Source of the DNA: Anas platyrhynchos
Taxonomy: Eukaryota
DNA: 64,000 nt
Reading direction: 5' to 3'
Assembly: GCF_047663525.1 (NCBI RefSeq)
Contig: NC_092587.1
Location: forward strand, 188,931,457-188,995,456
The notes below the pieces were generated by a model. The model searched no databases, had not been told where the DNA came from, and was given only the letters and a program-made list of their open reading frames with translations. A program made the translations under genes and the position numbers. Below are positions 8,560 through 57,572 of this stretch, piece after piece (within the stretch, counting starts at the first letter, position 1; each line of letters begins with the position of its first letter).

Positions 8560-8617
8560 AGAGAACAGGAAATGAGAATGGGTGATATGGGTCCTCGTGG
8601 AGCAATAAACATGGGAG
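8560..8617 (+). CDS. PSPC1: PSPC1 internal coding exon (REQEMRMGDMGPRGAINMG), 58 nt, ending in phase 1
   Basis: Acceptor tttactttcag|AGAGAACAGG and donor ATGGGAG|gtaggg. The trailing G joins AT of the next exon to give Asp, as in PSPC1 ...INMGDAFSPAP. Confidence 0.85.
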
Positions 8618-9837
8618 GTAGGGATCTGAAGGAAAAGGCTTCTGTAATGTAAAATTTGTTTTTCTTTGGGACTGTACATGTTACTCAAGCACTATTCATT
8701 GGTGACAACTACTGGTAAAATCAAGTAAATAGTATTAGGAAATAAGAAAAAAATCATACATTTTTCTTCTAAACAGTTGTTTTTCTCTGAAAAGTATGTT
8801 TTGAAAATTGATAAGAGAAAGAAAATGATCTTAAAGTTAAGAGAAATCATTAGGCAGGGTAATGCTCTAGAAATTATATGATGCAATACAGTAATGTTCA
8901 GTTGCAAAAGTGCTCAGTGTTCTTCTGGAGGGACTACACGATCAGAAAAGTTGGGACTATAAGTGTAAGCAGTGAAATGATTTACACCTTAAAATAGTCA
9001 GTTTCTGTTGACGTATTTCACAGAAGTTTAGCAAATAAGGTGGTTGGTGTCCTGTTTGCTTACTGCAAGTCTCTATTTGCAAATATTCTCAGTTCATTTT
9101 TGTGGTTTAGAGTACTGTCACTGCTAAAAACTCCTACTGTGAAATCTAAAAAAGTGTTTTCTTCATCATCGGTATTTGTTCCGTATCTGCAGACTGAAAC
9201 AATTTGAAATATTACTTAATCACAATATCTGCTTTTAAACAAGACTGAAATTAAGAATATTTAAAAAATGAAACTATTAACTATCAATATGTATCTTTAG
9301 GAAGCTTCCTGATGTTCATTAAAAAAATAATAAATTAGCATTTTGTGTAATTTAAACTTGGAAGTGAATATAAAGCTCAGTAAATGCTGCGGCATGACTT
9401 TGAGTAATGCAAATTTATAGACTAAAGTACTTCTTCAGTCCCCATTTCAAATACGTTATCCACCACTTGCATTCACTGACTGAGAAACATTCATAGCCAC
9501 AAAATGGGCTGATTCACTTGCAGAAAATGAAGAGGCTAAAATAATTCTAACAGAAATTCTTGTAAAGATCAAATTATCTAGAAATAGTAATCTGAAGCAT
9601 AAATTGCATTTATTTGATAGCTGCATTTTTACGTATTTTTTTTACATATTGTTTCAGCGCATTCTACTTGAAAATTTCAATCTATTAGGAGGCTTTGTAA
9701 TTATTGATATTGTGGAAACTGCTAACACCAGTTTTCCAGATTCTTAGGGTATGCTTTTATTATACAGATTTAAAATATGTATTTATAATAAAATAAGTAT
9801 TTACAGCAGTCAGTTCCCAGCCCCTTACTTTTCTTGT

Positions 9838-9950
9838 CAGGTTTTCATAGAATCACTGAAAGGTTTGGGTTGGAAGAGACCTTACAGATCATCTAATTCC
9901 ATCTCCCCCTGCCATGGGCAGGGACACCTCCCACTAGAAGGAAGTTTTAA
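9838..9950 (-). mobile_element. CR1 LINE 3'-terminal fragment, reverse orientation
   Basis: The sequence ..ggtttgggttggaagagaccttacagatcatctaattccatc..ctgccatgggcagggacacctcccactag is the reverse complement of the conserved CR1 3' end (..gggtccctgcccatggcag..ggaagggacctt..aacc) with a GATTCTATGA-type tail. Confidence 0.7.
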
Positions 9951-12668
9951 TGCTTAACTATGATATCCGTCATTGTTTTGGTTTGTAGCTTTCTTGCTAT
10001 GACTTCAGATTTTAAACTTGTTAGAAATAAATATGTAGGTTCAGAAGGAATTGCCGTAACAACTCGCAGCTATTTTAAAAAGGGAGAAATAACCCGTACT
10101 GAATAGGTAAAGTGTATAGTTTTACAGTAGCTGGATTTTAGGTAAACTCTGCATAGAGACTTTTTTTCCAGACCATTAGCAACCCTGCCACCAAAAAACC
10201 CCAACCACCCAAACTTAAAACAAATGAATAATTACAAAGCAACCTTCGAATAATGAATGTTTAATCTCTGATCTTATCTTCCTTCTTCACGTAATATTTC
10301 TGTTGGACCTGTAACTTAATTTTTAACTGGTCTTTCCATTTGCCACTTAAACCTTTTCATAATGTGGGACGGTGGCAAACTGGAGTATCTTTAGTAATGG
10401 AAAAACCTACATGATAGTGTTATTACAAAGCAAGATACCTCTGAGATGGGTTTAACTAGTGTTGGGTTGATGTGTGCAGGACCACTCAGTTTTACATCAT
10501 CTGCAGCAAACAAGTTCTGAGAGGCTCTGTAAAGCCACAGCATAGCACTTATCTGGATCTGCAGTGCTGGGTGTAGTTAATAAATCTCTCTCTAACCTGC
10601 AAAAAAATGGCTTTTTGGGAACTATTTCTGCATTGCTGAGGGCTATTGACTGTGACTTAATGCCAGCTGTGCCAAACCTTGGCACATCTGAAGATCAAGA
10701 TGCTGTAACAGCCTCTACTGACCTTGTGCAGGACCCTGCTCTCTCCCTGTATTTACACTCCCAGCCTTCCTTCTGACAGAACTTACAGCTTGAAAATGGC
10801 TTAATAGTGCAGTGAGGCTTACTGTTATAACACTATTGTGTACTTGATATCACCCTGGAAGAGGCATGGATATGTTTGTGTGGTACAGAGGGTAAAAACA
10901 CTGTTGCAGTTGAAGGCTAGTGAACATCACCTACATATGTAGCTGGCTGGCTAAGTTTAATTAGCAGGTTGGTAAGCCATAAAAGGTAATTGAGCATTGA
11001 CTGTCTCTAGTTATTTTTCACTACCAGCACTGAGTACTGCCATCATGACAGTCATATTAGGGCACTTCTAGCCTTTGAATATAGACGTTTCTCCTTATGT
11101 TAGCAATTTAGATTCCTTTTCCTTCCATGTGAGGTCCTTGAATGGTCGATGCTGAAAAATAGTTTTATTGGCTATTCAGCTATAATTTCGTCTTGTATTA
11201 CAGCACAATCTTTTACTTGCTAAATGAACTGTTCACATTTGTAGGTAGTTAACGATCTGGGTTGAATATGCCGGTATTTTGACTCCATGTTATAGGGAGA
11301 GGTCTTGATGTATTTAGGACTAAGCTCAGGCAAGTACTGCTTTTTAAAATACTTTTCCATATTGCTTCTAATAAACTTGTGCAGCACTTTCTGATATAAG
11401 TGTATGATAGTCTATGATTTTAGCAGCAGTATCTTGTAGTGATCTCAGTGACTGCTGCGATGGGTGCTCAGTGCTGGTAATACAGCTGCAGTTTTGCATA
11501 AGTGCAGATAATCATGGTACTGTGTTTGTGCTCAGTGACCAGCTTACAATGGTGGACATGTATATACATTACTGAAGAACTTATGAACAGAGTTGAGAGG
11601 CTGATTTTTGAAATAAAATGACAAGTTTTTTTTTAGTCTGGCAAACATGTCTGATTTCTTGATTTTTTTTTTTGTATGCATTATCATGACTTGAAACATA
11701 CACTAGATTCCAAAGGCATGGTTTCTTCTGTTATCAAATTTCAGATGCGCACTTCTGGTTGAAGAGTGTGCATAACCATTGTGGGGACAAAAGAGTGCAT
11801 CACCACCAGTCTTAAAGATTGACATCTCATAGTAGCAGGCATAAATGATTTATATAATCAGACTTTTTCTTACAGCATGAAAAAATGTTTTGAATGCAGT
11901 TTACTTAAGTGTGTTAGTGGGTGCTGGCAGTTCTGCTCAGTTCTGCTCACTGGCTTTCTAGCTCAGTGTTGTGGCCAAATGACCTCTCCAGAAGAGCCAA
12001 AAAGGTTTTTAAGCTTTTCTACTCCCTCTTCCAGTGAATCAGAATTTTCAAAGAATTTTATCTGTAACTTTAAATTCCAACAGAACTTCTTTTATATTTC
12101 TGGTGCTTTTACTATAACATGCATTTAAATGCAAGATTTCTTGATATCATGTTATAAATACTTCATTATAAAGTTGAGTGCCACCATTGGTATCACTTTA
12201 TATGATATTGCAGTGTATTAGTCTAGCATCAACATGTAACATTAATACTGGTGGAACAGTTCTTGTATATTTACTGTTAAAATCTTGAAAGGGACGAGTT
12301 GCCTTACAGCTATTAATTACTGCAAAATCACTTGAGATTTTTTCTAATTTGTGGTGTGTATAGTGCATATATATGTGCTATATGAACAGTTAAATTCCTG
12401 CACAGAAACAGTACAGCTATATTTAGCTGCAAAGTTCAGGTTTCTCAACAACTATAGAAGGCAGATTATGCAATGTGATAACAGGGAGTAATTAATCTGT
12501 TTAAAAGCAGATGATTGAGGTAAATGTACAGTCTCAAAGAATATATATATCTTTTATATTTCAAGTATTGGAAGTCTTGTACATTTGGCTTTTTAAATAT
12601 TGTAAATTGTTTGTTTATTCTTGTAAAATTCAGATAGGACAGCTCTAAGTATAGATTGTTTTGCATAG

Positions 12669-12838
12669 ATGCGTTTAGCCCAGCACCTGCTGGTAACCAA
12701 GGCCCTCCTCCAATGATGGGTATGAATATGAACAACAGAGGAACTTTACCTGGCCCTGCAATGGGTCCTGGTCCTTCCATGGGACCAGAAGGAGCTGCAA
12801 ATATGGGAACACCAATGATGCCAGATAATGGAACAGTG
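12669..12838 (+). CDS. PSPC1: PSPC1 penultimate coding exon (Gly/Pro/Met-rich low-complexity region), 170 nt
   Basis: Acceptor ttgttttgcatag|ATGCGTTTAGCC and donor ACAGTG|gtaacg. It translates as (D)[56 protein letters not shown]. Confidence 0.9.
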
Positions 12839-14917
12839 GTAACGTATCACAAATTTAATTCCTTTGAATAGATGTCATGTCTCATGGCACATATTCGTTA
12901 CCAAAGATATTTTCACACTGAATAAGAGCATGCTAAATGGTTTTGAGTCTGTTAAAAGTAATTGATAAGACTTGTTCATGAACAACACACAGAAAACCAT
13001 TATTTGGTCTTAGAAGGCCATTATGAAAATCCCACTTCCAGAAGGGTGACTTCTTTGATCCATAACCAGACTTTTAGAGTTAGGGTTAGGTTTTATATTA
13101 TTTGTGGTAAAACTTTTCATGTGTAACCTCTCTTGAAAAACTTGCTGATAATTTCTCAAAAGTGATTTCTTTTTAAGAGGAAACCACATACAGGAGTAAT
13201 CTGTAAGCTTCAATGTTTGCTTTTTTTTTGTTTTATGAAACTAAATCATATGTAATTGTTTGATTTTTCCATAATCAGATGAAAAGTTAAATGTTGGAAG
13301 TTATGCATAGTGTGAAGATATCTTTGTGTAAACTACTTGATTTTTTTTTTTTAAGTGACTTCAGTGTTTTTGTACTACTTTTCTAATGGTGTTGAAAAAA
13401 CAAGATTGACTGTAAACACTTAGAAAATAGGGATGTCAACAGCTGCTAGTCATAACTGTCATGTCAACACGGGAAAATAGTCTTGCCCAGTTGCCAAGGG
13501 TACTAGGAACGAATGTAGGGGATACATCTGGAATTTTTTATCAACAGAGGATACGCTATTGGGCTCCAATTAAAGCATTGGCCATTTTTGCTCTGTTCTT
13601 ACAACCAGTCATTTTTCCTAGCTGCAATGTCTTCTGTAGAGAAACAATTATAGCATTTTAAACCTGAAATTTACATACGTTTAAGTATTCTTTTTTAAGC
13701 AGATACTTGAGATGTTCTGGTAGTGGTGTGATGTAAAGGAGTATGAGGTATAAGCAGTGATTCCCTTATAGTTTTATTGGAACACTGAGGCACTTTGTAG
13801 CTGTAAATTTTATCTATGCCTTCTCAATAGTATCAGTCTCTGTGCTATTCTATAAACAAATTTTGACAAAATCCTTTGTTCCTTAAAGGAAAATAAGATT
13901 TTGATTAAGTGCTAAATGCAGAATGAGTCCAGTCTTCACCAATGCAAGAAGACGACCTTATTTCATGTCATAGTGACCAGCTCATTTTATTGTATAACTT
14001 CTCACAAGGATGGGGATGTGTCCGCTCAAAACTGGTGTTACTGACTGGTCACCTCTGGAACATACTTTTGTGATTTTATAGACACTGAAAAGAGGTGTGG
14101 GGGGGGGGGGAAGCATGCTGTTTCGATATCATGATATCGATCTCAAATTGTTTTTCTACAAAAAGTCATTCCAGTTATGGAAATGTAGAGAACGGAATCT
14201 ACTGACACTTCAAAATGTGCTTTTTAAAAACAAAAATTTAACTTGCATTTTCTTCTGCACACCACTAAGGGGATGAATTAATTGCTTCTCTTTTTTTTCA
14301 TTTTGTAGTTTCAAGGTTTTTAATTTGGGGGCAGGCCCCTACAGAAAGGCATGCCCTTGTGTTTTTGTTGCTGCTAGAAAGACACTTCAAAGAGTCTGTG
14401 AGGGCTGTCTACTGAAACACAGTTAATTTCCATTTCTGTTAAGAGAAATGGAGAATACAACTTACCAGAAAGGTGGTTTTCATCTTTTAAAAATTAAGCG
14501 TTTTTATAAACTATATAGGGAAAATTGGAGTAAACTGCTTTTTTTTGTTCTAGTTTTACTGCCATATTTTGAAATATATGTGAACATAATGTTTTAAAAA
14601 TAGCTTTTTTTTCCTCATAGCTTATTGTAGGTAGTTTATTTACTACAGCAGATTTCTCTTTAACTGAATAGAGGAGTCTTGTTGGAAAGACTTGTTTTTG
14701 TCCAAAAGTTAAATGGTAAAATTTAACAGGAGTATGCGATGAGCTATTTTTTTAAGTTCATATCCATCACTAGCAAGCTGTAAGCATTTAAGACACTTAA
14801 AAAATACGTATTTCTAACCAGTGCTGCAGATTTTAAGGTTCTTTGAGGGCAGTAGTAGATCTTTATACAGCTGTTGAATAACTGTTTTTCTTATACAATG
14901 TGAACTTTTAAATAAGC

Positions 14918-14919
14918 AC

Positions 14920-14957
<38 letters not shown>

Positions 14958-14995
14958 ATATATATATGTATGTATATGTATATATAAATATATAA
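14918..14995. repeat. (AT)n / (ATGT)n microsatellite
   Basis: acatatatatatatatatatatatatatgtatgtatgtatatatatatatgtatgtatatgtatatata. Confidence 0.9.
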
Positions 14996-16191
14996 GTTCT
15001 AAATTCTATAGAACTTCATTTATATAGATATACTACTTTTAAATAAAAAAATAAAAATATGCATATATAGTTATGAATTAGGTGACTTCTGGAACTCTTG
15101 AGCTCTACTACTATTACGGAAGTTAGACTTCTGAAGAACTGTCTGATTCAGGCATATAAATAGTGAGACAGTCTTTAATGTGCCTTTTCAACTCTGAATA
15201 CCTGGGCAGTTATGTAGCGCTCTGCTCAGAAGGAATTTCTACTGAAAGTAACTGTCCTCAACAGCTAAAGGATGAGTTATTTAAAGATCTGCTTGTACCA
15301 TACATCGATGCTTTTAATGATTTAATTTATGTTGAGGTAATGTTTTAAATTTCATTGTGTAGGGTTCTGTTTTAGACACACAAATGCTGAATTATTAAGT
15401 ATTCAGATGTATGTTTTCAGTTTTGAGTCTGAATTGTTAATAGTCAAGACCGTTTAAGCACATACACCTTAATGTTGAGTATGGAAATAAGGAACGTGTG
15501 CAACATTAACTGGATTTTCATCTTCTGTTGATGCTTCAGGTTAAATTTCACTTTTAAACTAAGCATAGTCCAATAGTCCAACTATGCATTGTATCAGTAG
15601 TTATACTAGTTTATTTGAATTGGGATTTAAAAGTCTGTTTAAAGATCCCTGAAGTGCCATACAAAAGGCTGACACCAGGTAGTATGGACTGAAATGCATT
15701 TAATCTACACATTTGTGGAAATGTAAGCCTTCAGGTTATTTCACTGTTAAAAGAATAAACCTGCAGTCTCTAGAAATACAAAAGCTCAACTTTTTTTCTA
15801 GTTTGACAATATTTCTGTGTCTAACTCCTTTAACAGAGAAGCATTGTAGTTGGTATGTTAGGACTTGGGTATGAAATCACTGTTTGCTCTTCTGTTACAT
15901 AGAGAATATGTATTGTTCAGATGTGCTTGAAAGGATGAAGTTACATTCAGCACCAGAGTTGGTTTGCATACTTAAATTTCTAATTTTTCATTTACTTTAC
16001 AAAGTTGGAGGGTAGCATTAGCAGTCTTTAATTTCCAGCTCCTTTTTGATAATAACTAATTGAATTGCTCCTTTCTTCCCCTCTATGTGTGATCCTGATT
16101 CTGCTGGACTATCTGCTGACCTTCCTGCCAACATCACTTGTGGGTTTTGTTGTAACTTACATTTGGCACGTTCCAAATGGACTTGTATTAG

Positions 16192-16377
16192 CATAATGAG
16201 AGATTCCCTCAAGGAGGTCCATCACAGATGGGTTCACCTCTGGTTAGTAGAACGGGCTCTGAAACTCCTCAGCCGCCAATGAGTGGTGTAGGTGCCGTGA
16301 GTGGTGGACCTGGTGGCTTTGGTAGAGGAAACCCAGGGGGCAACTTTGAAGGACCTAACAAGCGTCGCAGATACTAA
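16192..16377 (+). CDS. PSPC1: PSPC1 terminal coding exon including the stop codon (TAA at 16375-16377). It encodes the C-terminal NLS ...[12 protein letters not shown].
   Basis: Acceptor ttgtattag|CATAATGAG. The frame is continuous with the previous exon (..NGTV|[61 protein letters not shown]). Confidence 0.9.
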
Positions 16378-18533: not shown

Positions 18534-21500
18534 AGGAGAAGGCTGTGTCACTTGGCCCTTTTGGCCAACTCCCGTGTATTCAGGTAGATAAGGTAGTATC
18601 TCTGTAGTATCTAAATGTGTTTCAAAAGTTCATTAAGCATATCTAATCTGCGAAAAGTGCTTCATTCTTCCCCAGCCAGCCTCAGACTGTCTTGAGTGCA
18701 TATGTTTGCACTGCATTTTTTTTTTTTTTGGTAACAAACCAAGCTATGTATTTACTTGAAAGTTCCTGTAGACTTTAAGTGTAACACTGGTGATTTTCAC
18801 TCCATACTTAATAGCCACCATCAATATTAAAACTTTTGGTCATAAATGGCTCTGCTGCATGCTGGAATGCATGTTTATCTGCTGTCCTTACTACAGAAAA
18901 TCATCTAGTCTTTACATATCCACGTAACAAGCCTTTAAGTCTTGAAAGAAATATAGAAATGTTGAATTTGGATGCACTTCAAACATTTTATGAATTCCTT
19001 TTGTAGCTAATGACAGGCTGCTAAGTTCTGCTCTGAATTAAATTTTTCTTAGGACTGTCTGGCCATGTTGATTGTATGCAGCTCAATGGTAAAGGCAGTG
19101 CTTTTTCATTTTGCCATATGTCGTAGTAACTGGCTAGCTCTTCAGCAAACAATTTTGTTAAAAAAAGGAATGGTCCTAATTAAATTGTTAAAAATGGTAG
19201 GGAGATATGGCCAACCAGTGTTTTTGCTTGAAGATACAGCCCATATGCTGGAAGTGATTTATTTTTCTTGTTCCTCATCAAGCGTAGTAGTAGTTTATCA
19301 GCTTTTCTGTGCACACATATACTGAAGTTCTGAACTCTTACCATTTTTGCTGAGGCAGTGCAAATGATCTTGCAAAGGATATGAGATTGTAATGGAATTA
19401 CTTCTGGTATTTTCTGAGTTTTTAGATTATTCTTGAAATTTTGATATAAATTGCTTAATTTTTTTTATGAGATACAACTTCAGTACTGGAATATAGTAAA
19501 GCTTAAATATCTGTATTACTATTCCATATAATTAAAAGCAAAGCTGACCTTAAGTTGTTTATTGTCCACGTCTATATTTTATCCAGTTCAATCTAAAGAT
19601 ACACCAGACTGGTGACTCCTATTAGAACAGGGGTTATAACAGATGGCAAAGACACAATATAAACTGAATATTATATGAACTTAATTTTAACCATGCTCAA
19701 CAGGATTTTGTAGTCTGCACTCATTGAGATCCATAGTATATTGTCATAGGTTAAAATTTATACCAAACTCATTGTTCCCTCTTTGGTGTCTTTCCTCAAA
19801 GTTTAAAGAAAAATTACATGTTCTTTTAACAAATGATGACACAAAAATGCATCAACCCCGTGAAGCACTGATTGATAAACAGTTGCAATCTGCCGAGAGA
19901 TAACTTGGCCCAAAAAATGATGAAGTAATTGATCTAAAAGAACATTCTTAAGTAGAAAATAAAACCACAACAACAGCCTTATGTTTTGATGTGAGATGCT
20001 CAGCAAATAAATGGTGTGCTCTGAAGGCATGAAGGTCATTTTACTTAAGCATATTGAGGGAACAAATTTTTTTGGCATATGATTTCCTATAAAGAAAAAA
20101 TGTATATTAGATAAGTCTTTTCTCCAATTAATATACAGCAATGGAGCTATTAAAATAGTAGGGAAGGCCAGGTGGTAACTAATGGGGTCAATTTCCATTG
20201 GGCCATAGGTGTGGATGGACACTCAGTGCCATTCCTAGGTGTGGAGTGGTGCCAATCCATACGTAATCTCACACAGCCTGCATCCAGAGTGTCTTGTTAG
20301 CTCATGCTTCGGGCTAGGACTGGGGGACTTGATAGCATATTTTCCAAATGCTCTTTAACTGTTTCCTTAGGTGCCCTGAATTTATTGATTTGGGCACTGT
20401 GCTGCCATTAACATGCAAAATTATCTTGGGATTTGGTGCTTTCCTTGGGGTGTTAGCTTAGCTCTAACATGAGGAAGTATCAGTCCAACCTGCCTCATCC
20501 TTCAGTAGTGAGGAGGCAGCGAGTGTGGCCTGGGAAAATACAGGGGTCAGACATTGCTATGTTCAGTTGTTGGTTATTTCTTTCATGCTCTTTTGGAAGC
20601 AAACAGAGGACTGCCTCATACCCAAAGTATTTGTTTTCATTAAAATCAATTTGATGAAATGTGAGAATTTAATAACAATAGAATGATTGAGTTGCATTAC
20701 TTAGTCATGTATTATGTTTTTTTTTTTTTTTTCCCATAGGAAAAAAAAGGCAGCTTTTTGCTGCCTTTTGGGATACACCATAAAATATACTTAGGTGGCC
20801 TCTCAGTTTGGCCTTTTGCTGAAGAAATCTGTTGTGTAAATTTGTGTTTTTTCCCCATAGAATGTTTTTAAAATCATAGCTGAAGACATTTTTTCTAAAA
20901 ATTTAAGTTGTAGGATAGAGAACTGAATATCCAATTTTCACAAAACAATACTTTCATCTTAAATACATGTGAAACAAGCCTTGTGTGTGTTCATTTTTCA
21001 TGGGATAGATTTAATAGGTCTTTTCCATCTTGAACTTCCTTAAGCTGTGATTAATTGAAATTTGGAGGTATTCATATTAATTACTTCAGCCTGATGTCTA
21101 AAAGTGGCAGGAGGATGACTTTCTTCAGAAAAGCAGTTAACAGCAACCTTTTTTTCCTCATTGAAGGAAAAAAAAAAAAAATTGTTTGGAGATTACAAAA
21201 AAAAAAAACAACAAAAAACCAGCATACATATTGGTAAAATAATTTAAAAAACTGCTATCATGTAATGATTTTTACGCCCATATTGCATTAACAGGGAAAA
21301 AATAAAGCTTTATAAACCTGAGTAAAAAAAAATCTGAGTAAAATCGTGCTGGTTTGTATGTAGTCCCTTAAATAGGGGACAAAATGCTCGTAATAAGAGG
21401 TATGAGATTGAAAAGGAACTTCACTGTGTTACTGCATCCAGGTGTTGATGATTTCTATCACTTTGTGTTGGTAAACGGTTTGTCTAGAGCTTCTATTGTT

Positions 21501-22620
21501 TGTAGTTCTTCTAGTGTGCTTTTTTATATCTAATTTCTGTAGAGTAAAACATAGTTGTATAATTTGAATTTACATGCTAAATGTATGTGAGACATAAAGT
21601 GCTTGACTTAAGAACAGTGAGAATAAAGATGTTGTCCTTGCCATTGATTTCTCAGTAAAAAAAAAAGATTGCACACAACCTTGAACAGGAGTAAGTGTGA
21701 AGTCTTGTATGTAAGTTGAAAACAGGGAAGGGGGGAATAAAGAAACATAAAAATAGGAGAATTGTGGTTTACTTTTGTATTTTCACTAGATATACAACAG
21801 TAACTTGAAATCTCGTTCTTAATGAAAATCACAAGCTCACGTTAATGGAAAACAAAGAAATACCAGTTACACTAGTGTTCTTGATTTTTTTAAACCTTGA
21901 GTTTAGCATTTTGCAGACTGCCAAGGAAAATCAGAAGAATTGAAATGAATTAATAAATGGATTTTTTTAAATACTCATGAGTTACAGAGATGGTCATTGC
22001 AATTGGCTATGTTCTGTGTTACTCTTGCAAAGTTCTTCTGTAGGACTTGAATTTTGTCTGGTTACAGCAACTGCACACAGTGCACAAGCCTCATGGTTTT
22101 GTAAGTATGAAACAGCTGATTTTAGAATGGTTAGCTTCTGGGAATCCAAACTTACACTTAAGTATTACAATCAGAGAAGCAGCAAACAGAAGGCAGTGTA
22201 AGGAGAAAGAATACTGAGTATTTCCTGGTGTTTATGGAAAAGAATTAGGGTATTCTCCTCAGTTTCTTTAGCCTTAATTTCACTGTAATAATTTCTGTGA
22301 AAGGGAAAGTAGTTTTACTCTTAGTGAACATTTTTGGGAAAAAATGGTTTTCTTTAAATAACCACATACTGTTAAGGTGGAAATAGGAAACATAATCAGT
22401 CTCAAAAGATGCAGAAACCACAAGCATTTATTATAATTCCTTTGCAGATGATTGTTCTTCGTGTTTTTGGCATTTTAATGTGCTTCCTTTTTTTTTTAAG
22501 CTCCAGTACGGATACTGCTGTTCCTCCATTATTTGCTGTAAAAGGATTTATTCTGCAGTGCTGTTGCTAAGCTTAAATATTTGATCTAGTGTAAAATATT
22601 AGGGGGGGCTGGGACGGTTA

Positions 22621-22878
22621 GTGGACGGAGCGGGAGTGCAGGTAGTGTTTTCGTCCATCCCTACGGTGACAGGGAGGGGTACGGAGAGGACCAGGAAAGC
22701 CCACCTGTTAAACACATGGCTCCGGGGCTGGTGCCAACGCAGAGATCTTGGGTTTTTCGACCATGGGGCAGTTTATTCAGCACCTGGTCTGATGGCCGTA
22801 GACGGGTCCCTATCCTTTAGGGGAAAAAGGATCCTTGGCCAGGAGCTGGCGGGGCTCATTGATAGGGCTTTAAACTAG
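22621..22878 (+). pseudogene. CR1 ORF1, C-terminal remnant only (5'-truncated)
   Basis: The 85-aa ORF ends immediately upstream of ORF2 and its C-terminus resembles CR1 ORF1p. The element begins at about 22598, so most of ORF1 is missing. Confidence 0.6.
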
Positions 22879-22919
22879 GTAAGAAGGGGGATGGGGGTGA
22901 AGCAAGGATTGTTGGAGCT

Positions 22920-25733
22920 GTGCCAGGGGGAACTATGGCAAGGCCGGGGAATAAGGTAATGGCCCAGCTGAAGTGCATCTACACCAATGCACGCAGCATG
23001 GGTAACAAACAGGAGGAGCTGGAAGCCATCGTGCAGCAGGCAGGCTACGACTTGGTTGCCATCACGGAAACATGGTGGGACCAATCTCATGACTGGAGTG
23101 CTGCTATGCCTGGCTATAGGCTCTTCAGAAGGGACAGGCAGCACAGAAGGGGTGGCGGTGTGGCTCTCTATATTAGAGAGTCTTTCGATGTTGTGGAACT
23201 CGAGGCTAGGAATGACAAAATCGAGTCCCTTTGGGTTAGGATCGGCAGGGACAACAAGGCTAGTGTCCTGGTCGGGGTCTGCTATAGACCGCCGAACCAG
23301 GATGAGGAGACGGATGAGGAGTTCTACAGGCAGCTGACAGAAGTTGCGAAATCTTCAGCGCTTGTACTCGTGGGGGACTTCAACTTCCCTGACATATCCT
23401 GGAAGCACAACACAGCCCAGAGAAAGCAGTCTAGGAGGTTTCTGGAGAAAGTGGAAGATAGCTTCCTGACGCAGCTGATTAGTGAACCTACCAGGAGTGG
23501 TGCCCTGCTAGACCTTCTCTTCACAAACAGAGAAGGACTGGTGGAGGATGTGATTGTCGGGAGCTGTCTTGGGCAGAGTGACCACGAAATGGTGGAGTTC
23601 ACTATTCTTGGCGAGGCCAGGAAGGGAACCAGTAAAACCACTGTATTGGACTTCCGGAGGGCTGACTTTGGGCTGCTCAGGACACTAGTTGGTGGAATCC
23701 CCTGGGAGGCGGTTCTGAAGGGCAGAGGGGTCCAGGAAGGCTGGGCGCTCTTCAAGAGGCAAATCCTAATGGAGCAGGAGTGGTCTGTTCCCATGTGCCC
23801 AAAGATGAGCCAGCGGGGAAGAAGACCAGCCTGGCTGAACAGAGAACTGTGGCTTGAACTTAGGAGAAAAAAGAGGGTTTATAATCTTTGGAAAAGTGGA
23901 CAGGCCACTAGGGAGGACTATAAGGATGTAGCGAGGCTGTGCAGGGACAAAATTAGGAAGGCCAAAGCTCATCTGGAGCTCAATCTGGCTACTGCTGTTA
24001 AAGATAACAAAAAATGCTTTTATAAATACATCAACACAAAAAGGAGGACAAAGGAGAATCTCCATCCTTTACTGGATGCGGGGGGAAACTTAGTTGCAAG
24101 AGATGAGGAAAAGGCGGAGGTGCTCAATGCCTTCTTTGCCTCAGTCTTTAGTGGCAATACCAGTTGTTCTCTGGATACCCAGTACCCTGAGCTGGTGGAA
24201 GGGGATGGGGAGCAGGATGTGGCCCTCACCATCCACGAAGAACTGGTTGGTGACCTGCTACGGCGCTTGGATGTGCACAAGTCGATGGGGCCGGATGGGA
24301 TCCACCCAAGGGTACTGAGAGAACTGGCAGAGGAGCTGGCCAAACCACTATCCATCATTTATCAGCAGTCCTGGCTATCGGGGGAGGTCCCAGCTGACTG
24401 GCGGCTAGCGAATGTGACGCCCATCTACAAGAAGGGCCGGAGGGCTGACCCGGGGAACTACAGGCCTGTCAGTTTGACCTCAGTACCAGGGAAGCTCATG
24501 GAGCAGATCCTCTTGGGAGTCATCATGTGGCACTTGCAGGGCAAGCAGGCGATCAGGCCCAGTCAGCATGGGTTTATGGAAGGCAGGTCCTGCTTGACGA
24601 ACCTGATCTCCTTCTACGACAAAGTGACGCGCTGGGTGGACGAGGGAAAGGCTGTGGATGTGGTCTACCTTGACTTCAGCAAGGCTTTTGACACCGTCTC
24701 CCACAGCATTCTCCTCAAGAAACTGGCTGCTCTTGGCTTGGACTGGCGCACGCTTCGTTGGGTTAGAAACTGGCTGGATAGCCGGGCCCAAAGAGTTGTG
24801 CTAAATGGAGTCAAGTCCAGTTGGAGGCCAGTCACTAGTGGCGTCCCCCAGGGCTCGGTGCTGGGGCCGGTCCTCTTTAACATCTTCATCAATGATCTGG
24901 ACGAGGGCATTGAGTGCACCCTCAGTAAGTTTGCAGATGACACCAAGTTAGGTGCGTGTGTCGATCTGCTCGAGGGTAGGAAGGCTCTGCAGGAGGATCT
25001 GGATAGGCTGCACCAATGGGCTGAGGTCAACTGCATGAAGTTTAACAAGGCCAAGTGCCGGGTCCTGCACCTGGGGCGCAATAACCCCAAGCAGAACTAC
25101 AGGCTGGGAGAGGAATGGTTGGAGAGCTGCCAGGCAGAGAAGGACCTGGGAGTGATGGTGGACAGTCGGCTGAATATGAGCCAGCAGTGTGCTCAGGTGG
25201 CCAAGAAGGCCAACGGCATCCTGGCTTGTATCAGAAACACTGTGACCAGCAGGGCTAGGGAGGTGATCGTCCCCCTGTACTCGGCTCTGGTGAGGCCGCA
25301 CCTTGAGTACTGTGTTCAGTTTTGGGCCCCTCGCTACAAGAAGGACATCGAGGTGCTTGAGCGGGTCCAGAGAAGGGCGACGAAGCTGGTGAGGGGCCTG
25401 GAGAACAAGTCCTATGAGGAGCGGCTGAAGGAGCTGGGCTTGTTCAGCCTGGAGAAGAGGAGGCTCAGGGGCGACCTTATTGCTCTCTACAGATACCTTA
25501 AAGGAGGCTGTAGAGAGGTGGGGGTTGGCCTGTTCTCCCACGTGCCTGGTGACAGGACGAGGGGGAATGGGCTAAAGTTGCGCCAGGGGAGTTTTAGGTT
25601 AGATGTTAGGAAGAATTTCTTTACCGAAAGGGTTGTGAGGCATTGGAACAGGCTGCCCAGGGAGGTGGTGGAGTCACCATCCCTGGAAGTCTTCAAAAGA
25701 CATTTAGATGTAGAGCTTAGGGATATGGTTTAG
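22920..25733 (+). CDS. CR1 ORF2 protein (apurinic/apyrimidinic-like endonuclease plus reverse transcriptase), intact 937 aa
   Basis: The N-terminal EEP endonuclease region reads ..[40 protein letters not shown]. The RT motifs are ..[17 protein letters not shown].., ..[20 protein letters not shown].. and ..FADDTKLG... The CR1 C-terminus reads ..[30 protein letters not shown]. There are no internal stops or frameshifts. Confidence 0.9.
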
Positions 25734-28700
25734 TGGGGACTGTTAGTGTTAGGTTAGAGGTTGGACTCGATGATCTTGAGGTCTCTTCCAACCTAGAAAT
25801 TCTGTGATTCTGTGAAAATTCCAGAAAAACCCTGTGTACGCCAGTTATTGCAGTACTGCAAAGTGCAGTCTTTGAACTACCAGCTGGAAGTGGTCTTTTA
25901 AGCTGCTTACAAATGTTTTACATATTTTTATGCTGTTGGGAAATCACCAACAAATCTGAAATCTATGTACATTTTAAAAAAACAGTAATTCAATACAATT
26001 GCTGCAGGTAGGAATAGCCATTTGCCCTCCTTGCTGCTTGGTCCTGCTGCTTGCCTGCTTTGTGCCACCCTTGCATCTCTGTGCCCGTGCTTGGTGCAGT
26101 GAGCAGGATAAAGAGAAATCCCAACTATAGGACTGATTCTGCTCATCTCATGTGGGGGGAAAGATCAGCAAGGAGGGGGCAGTAGAACAAGATGCTCCAG
26201 AACTGTGGACACAGGTTAGTTTGTGCTGTACCTGCAGAGAATATAGAAAATATAGTTTTATGTATGTCTTCATTAAGTGAGATTGGATACTTTTCCAGTA
26301 CTTCTAGGAAATATATAGCTTAGAAATAGGTAAGAAATGTATTTAGGTTTTCAGATCTCTTGAGTGGTATCATTCCATTTTACATTCTTAGTGATAGTTG
26401 ACCTAAGAGGGCCACTATTTGAAATAATGAAGAATCAATTTACCACTAAAATGTTGAGCCAGATGCAGTGAGCTTGGCCTGTCTGTTCACTTCCTGCAGT
26501 TTCCAGAAAGCTAGATGCAAGTCGATAAAAAATGAAAAAGTGTTCTTCGTGCTTTCTCCAGGAAAGATGATATGTATGGTTTTGGAGAAGCAAAACTATT
26601 CCAATATATTTTTTCTTTGAAGAAAACGTACTCTGCAATTAGAAAGATGGAAAACACTGTCTTTTAAAAGGCTGACAATCTTCATTCTTTGATAACAATA
26701 GCACTGCATTGTTTCAACTATTCCTGTAAGCATTTTTAAGGGATGAAGGATGAAAGGTAAGCTGCAGCTCCAGTTTCAATCAACTTTGAATAATAAAAAG
26801 TCTTTCCCGGAAAGCACAGGAAGAAAAGTGCAATAATGAAACAGCAGTTCATCTCCTGTTTTGTGCCAATGTAGAATATTTTGCTTCTAGGACTCTCAGC
26901 ATGATACTGGTCTGAAATGATGAACCAGGGCTGTGCCACGTAATGCAAAAGTGTTTTTTGAATTAACCTGTGACAAATGCAATTACTACATTTCCAAAAC
27001 TGAAAATTCAGAGTTCTGAAATAAATTGTGTAAAAACAAGAAGAAGAAAAAAATCAAACCACAACACTTACATATTGAATCACATGTCTATAAGTGAAAA
27101 TTGTCAACTTGGCAGTTGAGATGTCCATGTTTTTAGAGCTATATGTGCCAGTTTCTTGTTGCCATGTTATGCTTTCCATGTAGCTTTTGTAGTACCATTT
27201 AATGCATGTTTCAGCATCATTAATTCTCGCATCTCAGTTGTGTACGGTTTCATCTTGTGTTCACACTGCTGAATGCAAATGTCTGTAGAAGGGGGGTACT
27301 AGAGCATTTGTTTACTGTGATGTAACTATTGTTTAGTAGTTTTTCATTGCTAAGCTTGCTTTATTTTGTGTTCACTATCCATGTTTTGTGCAAAATATGC
27401 TTTTCCTATTGCATATGAGGGAAAAAGGTATCAAGTCATTTAACTGTGTTTATTAAGTGTGTGTGTGTTAGCAGGTTAATTTGTAGTTATTCATAAACTG
27501 AAATCCTGAAGATGCATCTTAATGTTTCTAAAATGACCGCTGGCTCAGTAGAATAAATTCTCTTGGAATACTTTTCTGCATGATTATGTGTAGAGTTTTT
27601 ATGCTTATGGGCCACATCTGTATTTATTTAAAATTAAAAAAAAAAAAAATCAGTGTCCACAGGTCAGCTCTAAAATTACAAGTATGTGTACAAAACAGTA
27701 ATTTAATTCCAAATGACTTGATGTTTGCTCTAAACAGTACTGTAATGCTCCAAGTTGTATTGAATATAAAAAAGGTAATCGGTTTGAGTTACTTCATTTT
27801 TAAAGTGAAACTTAAATTGTATTCAGAGTAAAAGAGTGCACGGAGGGGGGGGGGGGGCGGGAAGGAGGGGGGAAATAATACAAACTTGTGGAGAAATGAT
27901 GCTCTTGTCTGAGTTGCTTTATATGTTACTGGCCTTGTATTTTCTACTATTTAAAGTGAGATCATTGTGCAGAACTATTTGTTATGAAGACTTGTTAACA
28001 AAAAGAATTACCACTTGTCTTGCTTTACACAGTTATTAGTATTAACTCATGTTAGCATCTTTAAAATAGTTAAAGTAGAATTGGTTGGGTTAGGTGCATG
28101 TACTTTACTGCCAATGGTGCCATGCAGTGTGAATATCAGAAATAGGGTAACTCAGGTGATGGTAGATACTGAAGACTGATACTGTGTTTTGCCTTTAAGT
28201 CCAGTTGGATAAATGCTCATCTTAAGCATTAGTCGTACTATCTTTGAAGTGAACTCTTTCATGTATCCTATTCCGGTTAACCGTGAAACTGATTTTCTTA
28301 GGTGTCTGATATTTTGGGGAAATAAACACTGATTTTAAAAACTGCCTGCAACCTCAGTAATCACACTTACTACATTTGTGTCTCTATTTTATTGCTGTAG
28401 TCACAAGTTTTAAAGTGTTAATCTGTAGATTATTCTAGGGGAGGGCAAAGGTTGCTTAATTATTGAGGCCTTAGGTGGGAAAAATTATGTAGAATCTTAA
28501 TATTTACAGTAAAAAAAAAAAGTGATCTTTAAAACTGCAGTGTCAAGGAAGCTGAATGGTGTATCTTTCAAGAAGGTGCAAGAGCTTTCTACTGGAGATT
28601 TTAAATATTTGTGAAGTATTACACCTCTAAATCTTTCACTGGTCTGACATGGAAGACATTGTGGAGCCCAAGCCTTCAATTATATGGTGAAATATTATGG

Positions 28701-31700: not shown

Positions 31701-32039
31701 TGTCTTCATAAAAACACATTTTTATGAGATTTGGTAGTTTTATTCCACATTGGTTTGTTTTTCATAAACAGGTAAGTTACTTCAGTGGACCAAGAGATAG
31801 AACATTTGCAGAATACCCTGCAATTTGTTAATGCTGTTTTGTTATCTTTGTCCAGAAATACAGATTATATTTCCTGTGTTCCAATCTAATGTAAGATTCT
31901 AATTGTTTCCTACCAAATATGACTGTATTACACTGGAAGGTAGAAGTAGCTATTCTGTCTTTGTCACAATGAAGCAATCAGAAATCAATATTGTCACTCA
32001 GCAGAATTAAAAGCATAGGAAGGAAATTCCAGGTAAAAT

Positions 32040-32290
32040 ATTTACAAGACCTTTTAATAGGACAGGAGGCCATGGGCACAGCCGGGCACCCAGGAGGCTC
32101 CCTCTGAGCACCAGGCAGCACTGCTGTGCTGGGTGGGTGACGGAGCCCTGGCACAGGCTGCCCAGAGAGGCTGTGGGGTCTCCTCCTCGGGGATCCCCAA
32201 AATCCCCCTGGGCAGCCTGCTCTATGTGTCCCCTGGTGTCACCCCTGCCCAAGCAGGGCCTCCAGAGGGCCCTGCCAGCCTTAGCCATTG
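32040..32290 (+). mobile_element. CR1 3'-end fragment, + orientation
   Basis: It encodes ..HCCAG.VTEPWHRLPREAVGSPP.GSPK.., a diverged CR1 ORF2 C-terminus ([16 protein letters not shown]). It is nearly identical over about 145 nt to the copies at 43.6 kb and 52.0 kb. Confidence 0.75.
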
Positions 32291-38674: not shown

Positions 38675-38830
38675 TTCACAGAACCAGCTAGGTTGGAAGA
38701 GACCTCCAAGATCACCAAGTCCAACCTCTGACCTAACACTAACCAGCCCTCCACTAAACCGTATCACTGAGCTCTACATCAAAGCGTCTTTTAAAGGCCT
38801 CGAGGGACAGCATTGCATGCAGAATCCAAT
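38675..38830 (-). mobile_element. CR1 extreme 3'-terminal fragment, reverse orientation
   Basis: The sequence ..ctaggttggaagagacctccaagatcaccaagtccaacctctgacctaacactaacc.. is the reverse complement of the CR1 tail ggttggac..gatcttggaggtctcttccaacctag. The reverse-strand reading gives ..FKRRFDVELSDTV*. Confidence 0.75.
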
Positions 38831-39789
38831 TTGTAGATCAATACAATGTAGTTTCAGATTCTGAACAGTCTTCAGGATTAGCCAGCAGGCTGTATCCATG
38901 TCCTCTGTAAAACCTGGGGTTGAGCTCAGTTCCCAAACATGCAGGTTTGTTGTGTCTACCCTACGTGTTGGTAGTGGGACTATTGTACACCGTGCAGGTT
39001 TTAAAGGGAGGTTGGTTCAGTTCTGGAATTCCAAATTATCAGTAGTTTTTATAGAGTAAAAGTCCTGTTAAGCACTGATGGGATTTACCTGAGATTTTAG
39101 CTGTACTGATCAAGCAAGAGGAATTTGGGTTAGTTCTCATGGGTGTTCTCCATGTTTGGCCTGGTAAATGAGAGCTGTCACTATAGTTATGTTTACAGTA
39201 AAAGAGAACTAATCAAGATATACTAAGCCCTATCAATGGATGGTGTCATTTATTGCTAATCAAAGATCCTCTCACTGATTTCCATCCGTAATTGTGTGCG
39301 AAGTAAGCAGTAAAACTTGAGTTGCTTGGGGAGTATAAACGTGACAGGGACCTTTTGTTATTCTGTTTAAAAAAAAAAAAAGCATGGGAAGGGCAACATG
39401 AGAAAAAGTCTTTCTGCAGTAACAAATCTCAAACTGGACTAGGAATTACACAGTACTGCAAAATTGCCTCGCAGAAATAGTTCAAAATTTCTGCCCAAGA
39501 CAGACATTTCCTATTATATTCCACAGCAGCCCTCTCTTTTTTTTCTGCCTTTTACTCTATCTGCTACATCTATTTAGGTAGCACTGCTTTGTAAAGGATT
39601 TCTCCAAAGAAAAAGTTTCTTCTGTACGTGGTTCAGATGAGGTGTTGGAGCTCTGCTCCCTGGTGTTCCGGTCACCCAGCGAGGAGCCAGAGAGCTGCAT
39701 TGCTGCTGCTGCAGGAGCCCTGTGGTGCTAACCTCACCTCTGCACTGAAATTGGGGCTGGATCTTCACATAATTACAGAATATCCAAGA

Positions 39790-40900
39790 TTGGAAGGGTG
39801 CCAAGGAGATCTTGTGACTGAACACCTCGCTCAAAGCAAGATGCCAGCTAGAGCAGGCTGCCCAGGCCCACGTCCAGGCGCCTTTTGGAGCTCCCCAAGG
39901 AGGAGACCCCACAGCCTCTCTGGGCAGCCTGTGCCAGGGCTCTGTCACCTGCCCAGCACAGCAGTGCTGCCTGGTGCTCACAGAGTCATTTACGTCATTT
40001 ACTAAAAGGTCCTCATCAAGTCCGACCATCAGCCTAAGACTACTCTCACCTCGTGTCCTGTCACTGGGCACCAGCAGGAAGGCTCTTGCTCTGTGGTCTT
40101 TCTGCCCTCTCATCTCGGTTTGTACGTACTGATGGGATTCCTCTCAGCCCTCTCCAGGCCGAGCAGTCCCAGCTCTCTGGATCTCCTCCCTCAACCTGCT
40201 GACAGCTTCCTGATGCAGCACACGATGCTGCTGCTGCCCTTTGCTGTGGAACAGCACATTGCCGGCTCATTCAGCTCCCCCAGGACTCTTTCTGCAGAGC
40301 TGCTTTTCATACTGCTGGCCTCCAGCCTGTCCTGGTGCCTGGGGTGGTTCCTCCCCAGGGGCAGGAGCTGCCTGTTCCCTCTGATAACTCCACAAAATCC
40401 TGTCAGCCCATTTCTCCAGCCTGTGACGGTGCCTCTGGATGGCAGCACAGCCCCCTCACACGCTCCTTCCAGCCCTGCATCTCTCGCACACGTGCTGTTA
40501 GGTGCGTTCTGTCCCAGCATCCAGGTCATTAATGAAGGTTTTGGAAATGATTGGCCTCAGTGCTGACTGCCTGGGGCACACTGCTGGGTGCCAGCCTCCA
40601 ACTGGTCTTTGTGCCACTGATCGCATGCTCCTGGCTCTGTTCAGCCACCTCTCAGCCCACCTCGCTGGTACGGGCCACCCAGCCCGTACCCCTTCAGCTT
40701 GTCATTGAGGCTGCAAGGGCAGAAAAGTGTCAGAAACCTCCTGAAAGTGAGGGTAAGCAACACCCGCTGCTGTCCCCATGCCCACAGAGCAGGTCACCTA
40801 ATCACGGGAGGCTGTGAGGGCAGGTTGATTGAGGATTTGCAAATGGCCCTTCCATAAATCCGTGCTGACTCCTGTCAGCCGCCTTCTTGTCCATGGTGAG
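39790..40900 (-). mobile_element. CR1 fragment (3' half of ORF2 plus 3' end), reverse orientation, degenerate
   Basis: The minus-strand translation contains ..ELGLLGLE.. (the reverse complement is ctctccaggccgagcagtcccagctc), ..SAERVLGELNEPAMCCSTAKGSSSIVCCIRK.. (compare CR1 [32 protein letters not shown]) and ..VTEPWHRLPREAVGSPP.. at 39.84-39.96 kb. Confidence 0.7.
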
Positions 40901-43479: not shown

Positions 43480-43900
43480 TTCAGGCAGTAGCACAGCCTG
43501 GACATAAGACTGGATGTGGAGCAGCTTTGCAGGAGCTGGGTTTTGAAGAAGGCTGGCTTTTGGGGATCCCCGAGGAGGAGACCCCACAGCCTCTCTGGGC
43601 AGCCTGTGCCAGGGCTCCGTCACCCGCCCAGCACAGCAGTGCTGCCTGGTGCTCAGAGGGAGCCTCCTGGGTGCCCGGCTGTGCCCATGGCCTCCTGTCC
43701 TGGCACTGGGCACCACTGAGCAGAGCCTGGCTCCGGCCTCTGGGCACTCTGCCTTCAGGGATTTAGGGACACGGATGAGATCCCCCTGAGGCTCCTCTTC
43801 TCCAGGCTGAGCAGCCCCAGCTCTCCCAGCCTCTGTTCACAGCAGAGATGCTCCAGTGCCTTCATCACTTCATCATTCTACAGCATCTCCCTTTCACAAA
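43480..43900 (-). mobile_element. CR1 3'-end fragment, reverse orientation
   Basis: The minus-strand reading gives ..[25 protein letters not shown].. then ..HCCAGRVTEPWHRLPREAVGSPPRGSPK... It is near-identical to the copy at 51.7-52.25 kb but inverted. Confidence 0.8.
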
Positions 43901-57486: not shown

Positions 57487-57572
57487 CTAGAAAATAAAGT
57501 TAATGCAGCTATAGAATATTCCACATTGAAATGCCAGATCAGAAACATCCGTTCCTCCCAGCAACTACTCAC

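Follow-up and report, generated by a model that had tools for sequence, protein, structure and literature searches.

To regard every bird CR1 element as a dead fragment is to generalise from the chicken, and this fails for waterfowl. A CR1 LINE copy in the mallard, Anas platyrhynchos, has an ORF2 that is open over its whole length, and it raises the question of what such an open frame signifies: a very recent insertion that supplies reverse transcriptase (RT) and endonuclease (EN), a sequence kept open by the host, or an ordinary young copy. The copy was analysed within a 64,000 bp stretch of genomic DNA, termed the window, which contains no N bases.

Anatomy of the element

The features of the locus are these:

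16192–16377, + strand: last coding exon of PSPC1, TAA stop at 16375–16377, 6.2 kb upstream of the CR1 copy
22598–25815, + strand: 5′-truncated CR1 LINE copy of ∼3.2 kb (3,218 bp), delimited by base composition, stork CR1 homology and the octamer definition
22603–22878, + strand: C-terminal remnant of ORF1, 91 open codons with a stop at 22876–22878; 85 codons if counted from a GTG
22935–25733, + strand: ORF2, 932 codons plus a TAG stop (25731–25733), in a frame open from 22866
22992–23585, + strand: apurinic-type endonuclease (EEP) domain, Pfam PF03372 and PF14529, all motifs present
24429–25085, + strand: reverse-transcriptase domain, Pfam PF00078 (RVT_1), E=5e-35
25734–25798, + strand: 3′UTR with a conserved hairpin, arms GGTTGGA (25759–25765) and TCCAACC (25787–25793)
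25800–25815, + strand: two perfect TTCTGTGA octamers as the sequence is read, equivalent to (ATTCTGTG)2 at 25799–25814
46477–63718, − strand: coding exons of MPHOSPH8, convergent with PSPC1

The element has a GC content of 54% and a CpG o/e of 0.39, versus 34–35% and 0.15–0.19 in the flanks. Its 5′ limit lies between 22598 and 22609, which is the finest placement possible. Homology to stork CR1 starts at about 22603–22609, within the C-terminus of ORF1, and the sequence upstream is an AT-rich unique flank common to other samples. The 3′ end was set by the waterfowl octamer definition (St John and Quinn, 2008; PMC2612034). An Rfam scan of the element returned a single match at chance level (E=0.66).

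As in avian CR1 elements generally, ORF1 is located upstream of ORF2, with its last 91 codons left. The remnant is 61% identical to the C-terminal end of the ORF1 that lies immediately 5′ of ORF2 at a stork CR1 locus, which is a mosaic gene model usable for ORF1 and 3′UTR homology only. Pfam gave no match to the remnant and a weak GDSL lipase match to its stork counterpart. The complete ORF1 and the 5′UTR with internal promoter of an autonomous LINE are absent; the copy cannot transpose autonomously because the 5′UTR and most of ORF1 are missing. An earlier reading of this DNA, made from the sequence without database searches (the sequence-only reading), had likewise described the copy as non-autonomous and its ORF1 as cut down to about 85 C-terminal codons, which is the count from GTG.

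The same reading gave ORF2 as 937 amino acids, open from Met. The open frame stands, and the length does not: the frame runs from 22920 to 25733 (+ strand), and 937 codons are obtained when counting from the GTG at 22920. The first ATG, at 22935, is in good Kozak context (A at −3, G at +4) and yields 932 amino acids, as in the closest annotated proteins of ducks, which have exactly this length. The remaining five frames of the element contain 6–70 stops.

ORF2 displays the organization of the CR1 clade, a single frame with an APE-type endonuclease followed by RT. The endonuclease domain matches Exo_endo_phos in Pfam (E=6e-15) and carries the motifs TNARS (position 17, in 932-aa numbering), ITETW (43), CYRPP (116), GDFNFP (147), PTR (185), LDLLFT (192) and SDHEMV (215). 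Catalytic residues, assigned by motif, are N in TNARS, E in ITET, Y in CYRPP, D/N in GDFNFP, T in PTR, D in LDL and D-H in SDH. The RT has YLDFSKAFD at 578 and FADD at amino acids 666–669 (24930–24941), and a 19-residue motif is found near the C-terminus at 903–921. All catalytic motifs are preserved, as had been proposed.

The 3′ signature of CR1 consists of a hairpin followed by an 8 bp microsatellite, ATTCTRTG / TTCTGTGA (PMC8665684; PMC2612034). The copy ends in this avian manner, with hairpin and then octamer and without poly(A); the terminal tail is ATTCTGTGATTCTGTG(A) at 25799–25815. An 8 bp stem of the hairpin is present in the minimum free energy fold, and the stability of the whole 3′UTR does not exceed that of shuffled sequences (z=+0.74). 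Both arms recur unchanged at the 3′ ends of other CR1 pieces in the window and of a stork CR1. The hairpin is therefore backed by conservation, not by folding energy, and both it and the microsatellite are as intact as first described.

Genomic neighbourhood and transcription

The position between PSPC1 and MPHOSPH8 was also read correctly; it is borne out by the flanking exons. The final three coding exons of PSPC1 span 8542–16377 (+ strand). A protein search with its C-terminal part returned only short fragments named paraspeckle component 1, and no bird locus. MPHOSPH8 is identified by a match to PDB chain 8qfb_B, M-phase phosphoprotein 8 (E=7e-124). The two genes converge, and the CR1 copy lies between them in the orientation of PSPC1. 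Other CR1 pieces within the window are short (50–600 bp) and full of stops.

A Logan contig from a mallard cecum metatranscriptome (run SRR26965765) is 99.25% identical to window positions 21197–22267. This RNA-derived contig stops 330 bp short of the 5′ end of the element and leaves room for read-through transcription of ORF2. GC skew stays positive and AT skew negative through most of the region, as far as ∼40 kb.

Family and abundance in ducks

The ORF2 search gave 1019 matches, the closest being ORF2 proteins of bird CR1 elements. The best are proteins of Anas zonorhyncha and A. platyrhynchos, of 932, 911 and 714 amino acids, which align without gaps at 96–97% identity. Identity falls to 86–87% in Anser and to ∼75% in the stork Mycteria. 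The closest protein clusters at 90% identity have 88 and 49 members, with many distinct ORF2s of 932 and 911 amino acids.

Waterfowl have been reported to carry high numbers of intact CR1s, with expansion of CR1-J and CR1-X in Anas within ∼2 Myr (PMC8665684). Mallard-specific short insertions number 268 and 184 (SI Table 3 of PMC8665684). A ‘full-length, intact’ CR1, as defined by Galbraith et al. (2021; PMC8665684), exceeds 2,700 bp, has EN and RT in one intact open reading frame and retains its 3′ hairpin and microsatellite, and the 3,218 bp copy has all of these properties. It is an ordinary member of a young, abundant duck CR1 family and is already known in kind. The expectation that the species might hold few intact ORF2 copies is contradicted both by the two clusters and by the many reported in Anas (PMC8665684).

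Divergence, age and decay

Compared with the family majority, 31 of 932 residues of ORF2 differ (3.3%), versus 1–1.7% in typical intact members, which places this ORF2 among the most diverged of the intact family members compared. Ten of the 31 differences are private, and up to five of these ten can be explained as CpG transitions. At 15 or more subfamily-diagnostic positions, ORF2 keeps the outgroup state, which most other sampled intact copies have lost. Three private changes, A280E, H444R and V623L, fall at residues that show no variation among the duck and goose sequences sampled and are ∼96–97% conserved in stork CR1s; the private residues also include W283, W532 and Q694. Conservation beyond ducks and geese was scored on matches below 85% identity, where one stork family dominates, so that ‘conserved’ columns mostly mirror that family, and the scoring was set aside as a test of function.

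The divergence of the copy is inferred to be ∼0.5–1%, and ∼0.5% neutral divergence corresponds to a rough age of 1–3 Myr, both values drawn from amino-acid differences only, with some ‘private’ changes possibly belonging to an unsampled source element. In a simulation of an open reading frame of ORF2 length, the probability of remaining free of stops was 0.72 at 0.5% divergence and 0.51 at 1%. An open ORF2 is thus expected by chance in 50–70% of copies at ∼0.5–1% divergence. ORF2 is intact because the copy is young, a few Myr at most, and not because it is special. Selection is unnecessary to explain it.

Presence in other samples

A look-up of contigs from other runs found 19, of which 10, from 10 runs, were retrieved. 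All 10 cross the 5′ junction from the left flank into CR1, and their left flanks are 99.1–99.8% identical to the window. A G/A CpG SNP at 22616, within the element, varies among them. No empty allele was seen among the 10, in a look-up that demanded an identical 60-amino-acid flank open reading frame, is biased to similar haplotypes and could miss empty alleles. Near-identity to an active master, the other mark of a polymorphic or very recent insertion, was not found either. Exact look-ups of the right-flank open reading frames found none on record, and no sequence across the 3′ junction was recovered from another sample; those of the left-flank 53-amino-acid frame and of the ORF1 remnant likewise found none on record. 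A chimeric query of flanking non-coding frames against Logan contigs, with other species sought, gave no matches.

Origin of the copy and alternative explanations

The copy is very probably a fixed or high-frequency, 5′-truncated member of a waterfowl CR1 LINE subfamily recently active in ducks. This explanation draws directly on its anatomy, family membership, host lineage, presence in other individuals and decay pattern. The mode of insertion is proposed from general knowledge of LINEs. In target-primed reverse transcription, the ORF2p endonuclease would have nicked an AT-rich site downstream of PSPC1, and RT would have been primed at the 3′ end of the CR1 RNA, with its octamer and hairpin. 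RT may then have copied ∼3.2 kb and halted inside ORF1, so that the copy would have arrived without the 5′UTR and promoter and without most of ORF1. ORF2 would have remained open since insertion over a short time, at ∼0.5% neutral divergence.

The sequence-only reading favoured a very recent, possibly polymorphic insertion that would be notable for supplying RT and endonuclease if intact copies were few in the genome. The intact ORF2 with all its catalytic motifs, the perfect octamers, a CpG o/e still at 0.39, the low private divergence and the mallard RNA-seq contig within 330 bp upstream are all consistent with it, and youth itself holds, as divergence is far under the 5–10% that had been set as the mark of an old copy. 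‘Very recent’ does not hold: the 10 private changes and the basal subfamily state speak against it, as do the filled site in all 10 junction contigs, which also goes against polymorphism, and the SNP that varies inside the element. With many intact ORF2s of the same family in the genome (PMC8665684), and with 91 ORF1 codons and no 5′UTR or promoter in the copy, this explanation as a whole is highly unlikely. The copy would be an unlikely source of RT or endonuclease activity, judged from its sequence, because it has no 5′UTR or promoter and its open reading frame lies >6 kb into a downstream or 3′UTR-like region. There is perhaps a very slim chance that this copy, with ORF2 alone, lies in sense within read-through or extended 3′UTR RNA of PSPC1 and that ORF2p is translated from such RNA, a source driven by the host gene. 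If so, ORF2p from PSPC1 read-through RNA would provide RT and endonuclease in trans, and a promoter of its own would be unnecessary.

Such transcripts also bear on co-option, whereby ORF2 would serve the host and be kept open by purifying selection, for instance on read-through or extended 3′UTR transcripts of PSPC1. The shared orientation, the location 6.2 kb beyond the PSPC1 stop, the open frame, the upstream region found in a mallard metatranscriptome assembly and the skews that extend to ∼40 kb would all fit. However, private changes strike conserved residues (A280E, H444R, V623L) and are enriched in CpG transitions, as neutral decay predicts, and an open frame at such divergence is expected by chance; co-option is scarcely credible. 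Nor is much credence due to an assembly artefact, in which a consensus-like CR1 was placed or collapsed by the assembler and ORF2 merely looks intact. Young CR1s are known to leave gaps and collapsed regions when duck genomes are assembled (PMC8665684), and the 3′ junction has not been independently recovered; on the other hand, 10 independent runs show the same 5′ junction, the window is free of N bases and the copy, with its 10 private substitutions, is not consensus-like.

The element is of little importance, being one more young CR1 in a lineage, the ducks, already documented as rich in intact CR1s and in recent expansions. It could serve, at best, as a presence/absence marker in the phylogeography of Anas.

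Comparison with known systems

Target-primed reverse transcription and frequent 5′ truncation are common to CR1 and LINE-1. ORF1 is esterase-like in CR1 elements and of the coiled-coil/RRM type in L1. Human LINE-1 ORF2p (PDB 8sxt, 8uw3, 8c8j) has an N-terminal APE-type endonuclease and then an RT with F-A-D-D, as does the copy, and the RT fingers and palm of the copy align to the RT of human L1 ORF2p (PDB 8sxt) with E=7e-23. The two differ in length, with 932 amino acids in CR1 ORF2p versus 1275 in human LINE-1 ORF2p, and in the 3′ end, which is a hairpin plus octamer repeat in CR1 and poly(A) in human LINE-1.

Chicken-type CR1 fragments in the window share the 3′ hairpin and the ORF2 C-terminal motif with the copy, but they are 14–30% diverged or recognizable only at the protein level, whereas the copy retains its whole ORF2.

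Waterfowl CR1 subfamily I, described in Coscoroba (St John and Quinn, 2008; PMC2612034), has the terminal octamer TTCTGTGA in common with the copy. Two perfect repeats, the number in the copy, are the commonest state in that subfamily, and in both the insert ends in ...ATTCTGTGA. Low-GC flanks are also shared (34–35% for the copy, 38% in PMC2612034). The first four bases of the 3′ flank differ, AAAT in the copy versus the preferred TTCT. PMC2612034 covered 3′ fragments only, whereas the copy compared here has the whole ORF2.

The closest known relatives are those of Anas itself. Compared with annotated Anas CR1 ORF2s, that of the copy shares the duck host and is 96–97% identical, but its divergence slightly exceeds that of most intact members, and it is absent from the protein collection in each of the ten alternative Met-start forms looked up exactly. 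The intact CR1-J and CR1-X copies of Anas (Galbraith et al., 2021; PMC8665684) are like the present copy in their length of >2.7 kb, in an open reading frame encoding both EN and RT, and in a 3′ end formed by the hairpin and an 8 bp microsatellite.

An intact ORF2 among many

The 5′-truncated CR1 LINE at window 22598-25815 (+) is one among many copies with an intact ORF2 in a CR1 family of ducks, for which recent activity has already been published. A search with the ORF2 protein returned 1019 matches, the closest being proteins of Anas zonorhyncha and Anas platyrhynchos annotated as 'Reverse transcriptase domain-containing'. The closest Anas proteins, of 932, 911, 875 and 714 amino acids (a spread that reflects the annotators' choice of methionine), align without gaps at 96-97% identity. 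Identity is 86-87% in Anser brachyrhynchus and ~75% in the stork Mycteria americana. Of the clusters built at 90% identity, the two best contain 88 and 49 sequences, with at least 10 distinct complete or near-complete ORF2s among the 30 cluster members listed. A sequence-only reading described the locus accurately save for one length, but its appraisal as a notable, potentially important source of ORF2 is not sustained, given the many intact copies and the non-autonomous state of this one.

Reading frame and domains of ORF2

ORF2 is a single uninterrupted frame at 22920-25733 (+), listed mechanically as 937 codons with a GTG start, and the frame is already open from 22866. The remaining five frames of the copy contain 6-70 stops; an open frame of 2.8 kb is therefore far beyond chance. 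The uninterrupted frame claimed earlier thus stands, but the 937 amino acids ascribed to a methionine start are counted from GTG. The first ATG, at 22935 in the context GGAACTATGG (A at -3, G at +4), gives 932 codons, the exact length of the nearest annotated proteins. The N-terminus reads MARPGNKV... in the window versus MARPEDKV... in these proteins. The window ORF2 is absent from the protein collection in every Met-start form looked up, which only reflects annotation practice.

Pfam matches are to Exo_endo_phos (E=6e-15), Exo_endo_phos_2 (E=4e-10) and RVT_1 (E=5e-35), and the reverse transcriptase aligns with human L1 ORF2p structures (8sxt and others, E=7e-23). By the residue numbering of L1, counterparts of the complete set of catalytic residues are present, the motifs being located by sequence. 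The EEP and RT motifs, including FADD, and the C-terminal motif are preserved, as had been proposed.

Counterparts of L1 catalytic residues, and the C-terminal motif, in ORF2
aa 17-21, N in TNARS, L1 catalytic counterpart
aa 43-47, E in ITETW, L1 catalytic counterpart
aa 116-120, Y in CYRPP, L1 catalytic counterpart
aa 147-152, D and N in GDFNFP, L1 catalytic counterpart
aa 185-187, T in PTR, L1 catalytic counterpart
aa 192-197, D in LDLLFT, L1 catalytic counterpart
aa 215-220, D-H in SDHEMV, L1 catalytic counterpart
aa 578-586, D in YLDFSKAFD, L1 catalytic counterpart
aa 666-669, FADD, L1 catalytic counterpart
aa 903-921, C-terminal motif of 19 residues

ORF1 remnant and 3′ end

What is left of ORF1 reads without a stop from 22603 until a TAG at 22876-22878, with 91 codons, or 85 counted from GTG, in agreement with the truncated ORF1 of ~85 C-terminal codons reported before. 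The remnant is 61% identical to the peptide encoded directly upstream of ORF2 in a stork CR1 (locus L001, 2682-2942). CR1 homology starts at ~22603-22609, within the ORF1 C-terminus, and the copy is therefore not an autonomous element.

At window 22780-22830 the remnant reads ...AVDG-SLSFRGKR... versus ...ATDGVHLSQRGKR... in the stork ORF1 (L001 2870-2920). The stork ORF1 shows a weak GDSL lipase match (E=3e-4, below the cut-off), and the duck remnant is without the His of the DGxH block.

The 3′UTR comprises 65 nt after the ORF2 stop (25731-25733). The arms GGTTGGA (25759-25765) and TCCAACC (25787-25793) pair in the MFE fold and are invariant in the stork CR1 and in other CR1 3′ ends of the window. 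The copy terminates in A(TTCTGTGA)2 at 25799-25815; the hairpin region and terminal microsatellite are intact, as first read.

Genomic surroundings

The insertion lies between PSPC1 and MPHOSPH8, where it had been placed; exons of both genes were found with protein baits. PSPC1 residues 382-523 (+) are at 8542-8616, 12668-12838 and 16192-16374, followed by a TAA stop at 16375-16377, and MPHOSPH8 residues ~70-806 are spread over 63718-46477 on the - strand. The PSPC1 peptide retrieves proteins named paraspeckle component 1, and that of MPHOSPH8 matches PDB 8qfb_B, 'M-phase phosphoprotein 8' (E=7e-124). The two genes are convergent. The CR1 copy shares the orientation of PSPC1, follows its stop codon at a distance of 6.2 kb, and has 54% GC versus 34-35% in the surrounding region.

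GC skew and AT skew flip sign at ~40-44 kb of the window: up to ~40 kb the greater part of the + strand has G>C and T>A, and past ~44 kb the reverse. The flip matches convergent transcription of PSPC1 (+) and MPHOSPH8 (-), and the PSPC1-type skew extends >20 kb beyond the PSPC1 stop codon. GC content peaks at 56% at 40-41 kb, and this peak does not stand out as a promoter CpG island. At this peak is a decayed CR1-like ORF2 remnant, 39574-40818 (-), with 31-37% similarity in the RT and, within a 179-aa ORF, the C-terminal motif '...WHRLPREAVGSPPW...'; Pfam gave no significant match for it. Five short CR1 fragments, in the usual truncated and decayed state, retain the same conserved hairpin arms and show 69-86% nucleotide identity or are detectable at the protein level only.

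Short CR1 3′-end fragments in the window
9845-9893 (-), short CR1 3′-end fragment
32020-32184 (+), short CR1 3′-end fragment
38688-38807 (-), short CR1 3′-end fragment
43576-43874 (-), short CR1 3′-end fragment
51696-52142 (+), short CR1 3′-end fragment

Insertion and transcription

LINE copies usually have a complete 3′ end and a missing 5′ end, and this copy has the same form. By general LINE biology it would be a product of target-primed reverse transcription that came to a halt or was cut short within ORF1. The sequence AAAAT, at 22593-22597 and 25815-25819, flanks the insertion on both sides and may be a target-site duplication of 4-5 bp. Its shortness and AT-richness deprive it of weight as evidence; in flanks so rich in AT, the pair is indistinguishable from chance without an empty site.

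Since the 5′UTR is missing, the copy is transcribable only as a passenger. A 1,068-nt Logan contig (assembled from public run SRR26965765, a captive mallard cecal metatranscriptome; PMC11163284) is 99.25% identical to window 21197-22267 and identical in a flanking ORF; a further Logan contig has 100% identity to the window over 1547 bp. Matches this close place the window in Anas platyrhynchos or a species very near to it. The 21197-22267 stretch is 4.8-5.9 kb beyond the stop of PSPC1 and ends 330 bp short of the CR1; its recovery from such a run suggests a long PSPC1 3′UTR or read-through transcription, although the run is total-RNA metatranscriptomics, in which the contig may derive from either strand and from pre-mRNA or DNA carry-over. 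PSPC1 transcription may run into the CR1 copy. ORF2 follows a stop codon by >6 kb and is unlikely to be translated.

Presence in other samples

A 60-aa flank ORF at 22245-22427 (-), 171 bp left of the insertion, was used for exact look-up in Logan; the look-up demands an identical ORF, such that very different haplotypes would be missed. It gave 19 contigs, and the ten shown come from ten different runs of at least four accession series. All ten pass through ...AAAATATTAGGGGGGGCTGGGAC... from the left flank, where identity to the window is 99.1-99.8%, and enter the CR1, in which they break off after 17-48 bp, as expected of a short-read graph that branches at a repeat. None of these ten reaches the right flank, and none shows an empty allele. 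Position 22616, a CpG site inside the CR1 5′ end, is A in two contigs (L008 and L010) and G in the window and the remaining contigs that reach it; the element therefore differs at one site among individuals. Look-ups of the right flank brought up no 3′ junction in other samples, and searches recovered no orthologous locus in another species.

Divergence and age

In an alignment with 32 close members of the family and 4 anatid sequences at greater distance, 31 of the 932 residues of the window ORF2 depart from the family majority. At 20 of these positions the window residue is found in some members and is mostly the outgroup state too (e.g. M9, C211, V285, K373, Q535, L855), which points to a source somewhat older than that of most other sampled intact copies. 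One further residue matches an outgroup only. Ten changes are private: D6N, G188S, A280E, R283W, G410S, H444R, R532W, V623L, R694Q and R923H. By codon, at most five are explicable as CpG transitions, three are other transitions and two are transversions; A280, H444 and V623 do not vary among the duck and goose sequences compared and are ~96-97% conserved in the stork family. Such a pattern is what methylated DNA shows when it decays neutrally, and is not a sign of purifying selection.

The ten changes, all non-synonymous, amount to ~0.5% of ~2,100 non-synonymous sites. At a rough neutral rate for birds of about 2e-9 per site per year, the insertion would date to the order of 1-3 Myr, an upper bound if the source element already carried some of the private changes. 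A leave-one-out comparison ranks the copy with the most diverged of the intact members, at 3.3% from the majority versus a typical 1-1.7%, though some database proteins may be one locus annotated in two assemblies, which lowers their private counts. Under simulated CpG-weighted substitutions the probability of no stop was 0.84, 0.72, 0.51, 0.23 and 0.03 at 0.25, 0.5, 1, 2 and 5% divergence, values that indels would reduce somewhat; an open ORF2 is thus unremarkable in a copy so young. The very recent insertion of the sequence-only reading is likewise not supported: the copy is non-autonomous, present in every contig crossing its 5′ junction and already decaying neutrally.

Relation to known duck CR1 elements

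Full-length CR1s have been defined by EN, RT, the 3′ hairpin and the microsatellite, and intact CR1s by both domains within one ORF (Galbraith et al., 2021; PMC8665684). In SI Table 3 of that study, A. platyrhynchos has 268 CR1-J and 184 CR1-X short insertions that are absent from A. zonorhyncha, Anser and chicken. Apart from assignment to CR1-J or CR1-X, which takes a consensus library, the window copy fits the known intact-CR1 class in every feature. In waterfowl the octamer is TTCTGTGA, two perfect repeats are the commonest state, and young CR1s are in flanks of ~38% GC (St John & Quinn, 2008; PMC2612034). The 3′ flank of the window copy starts with AAAT, whereas the waterfowl CR1s prefer TTCT; the copy is like them in its octamer, its two perfect repeats and its low-GC flanks.
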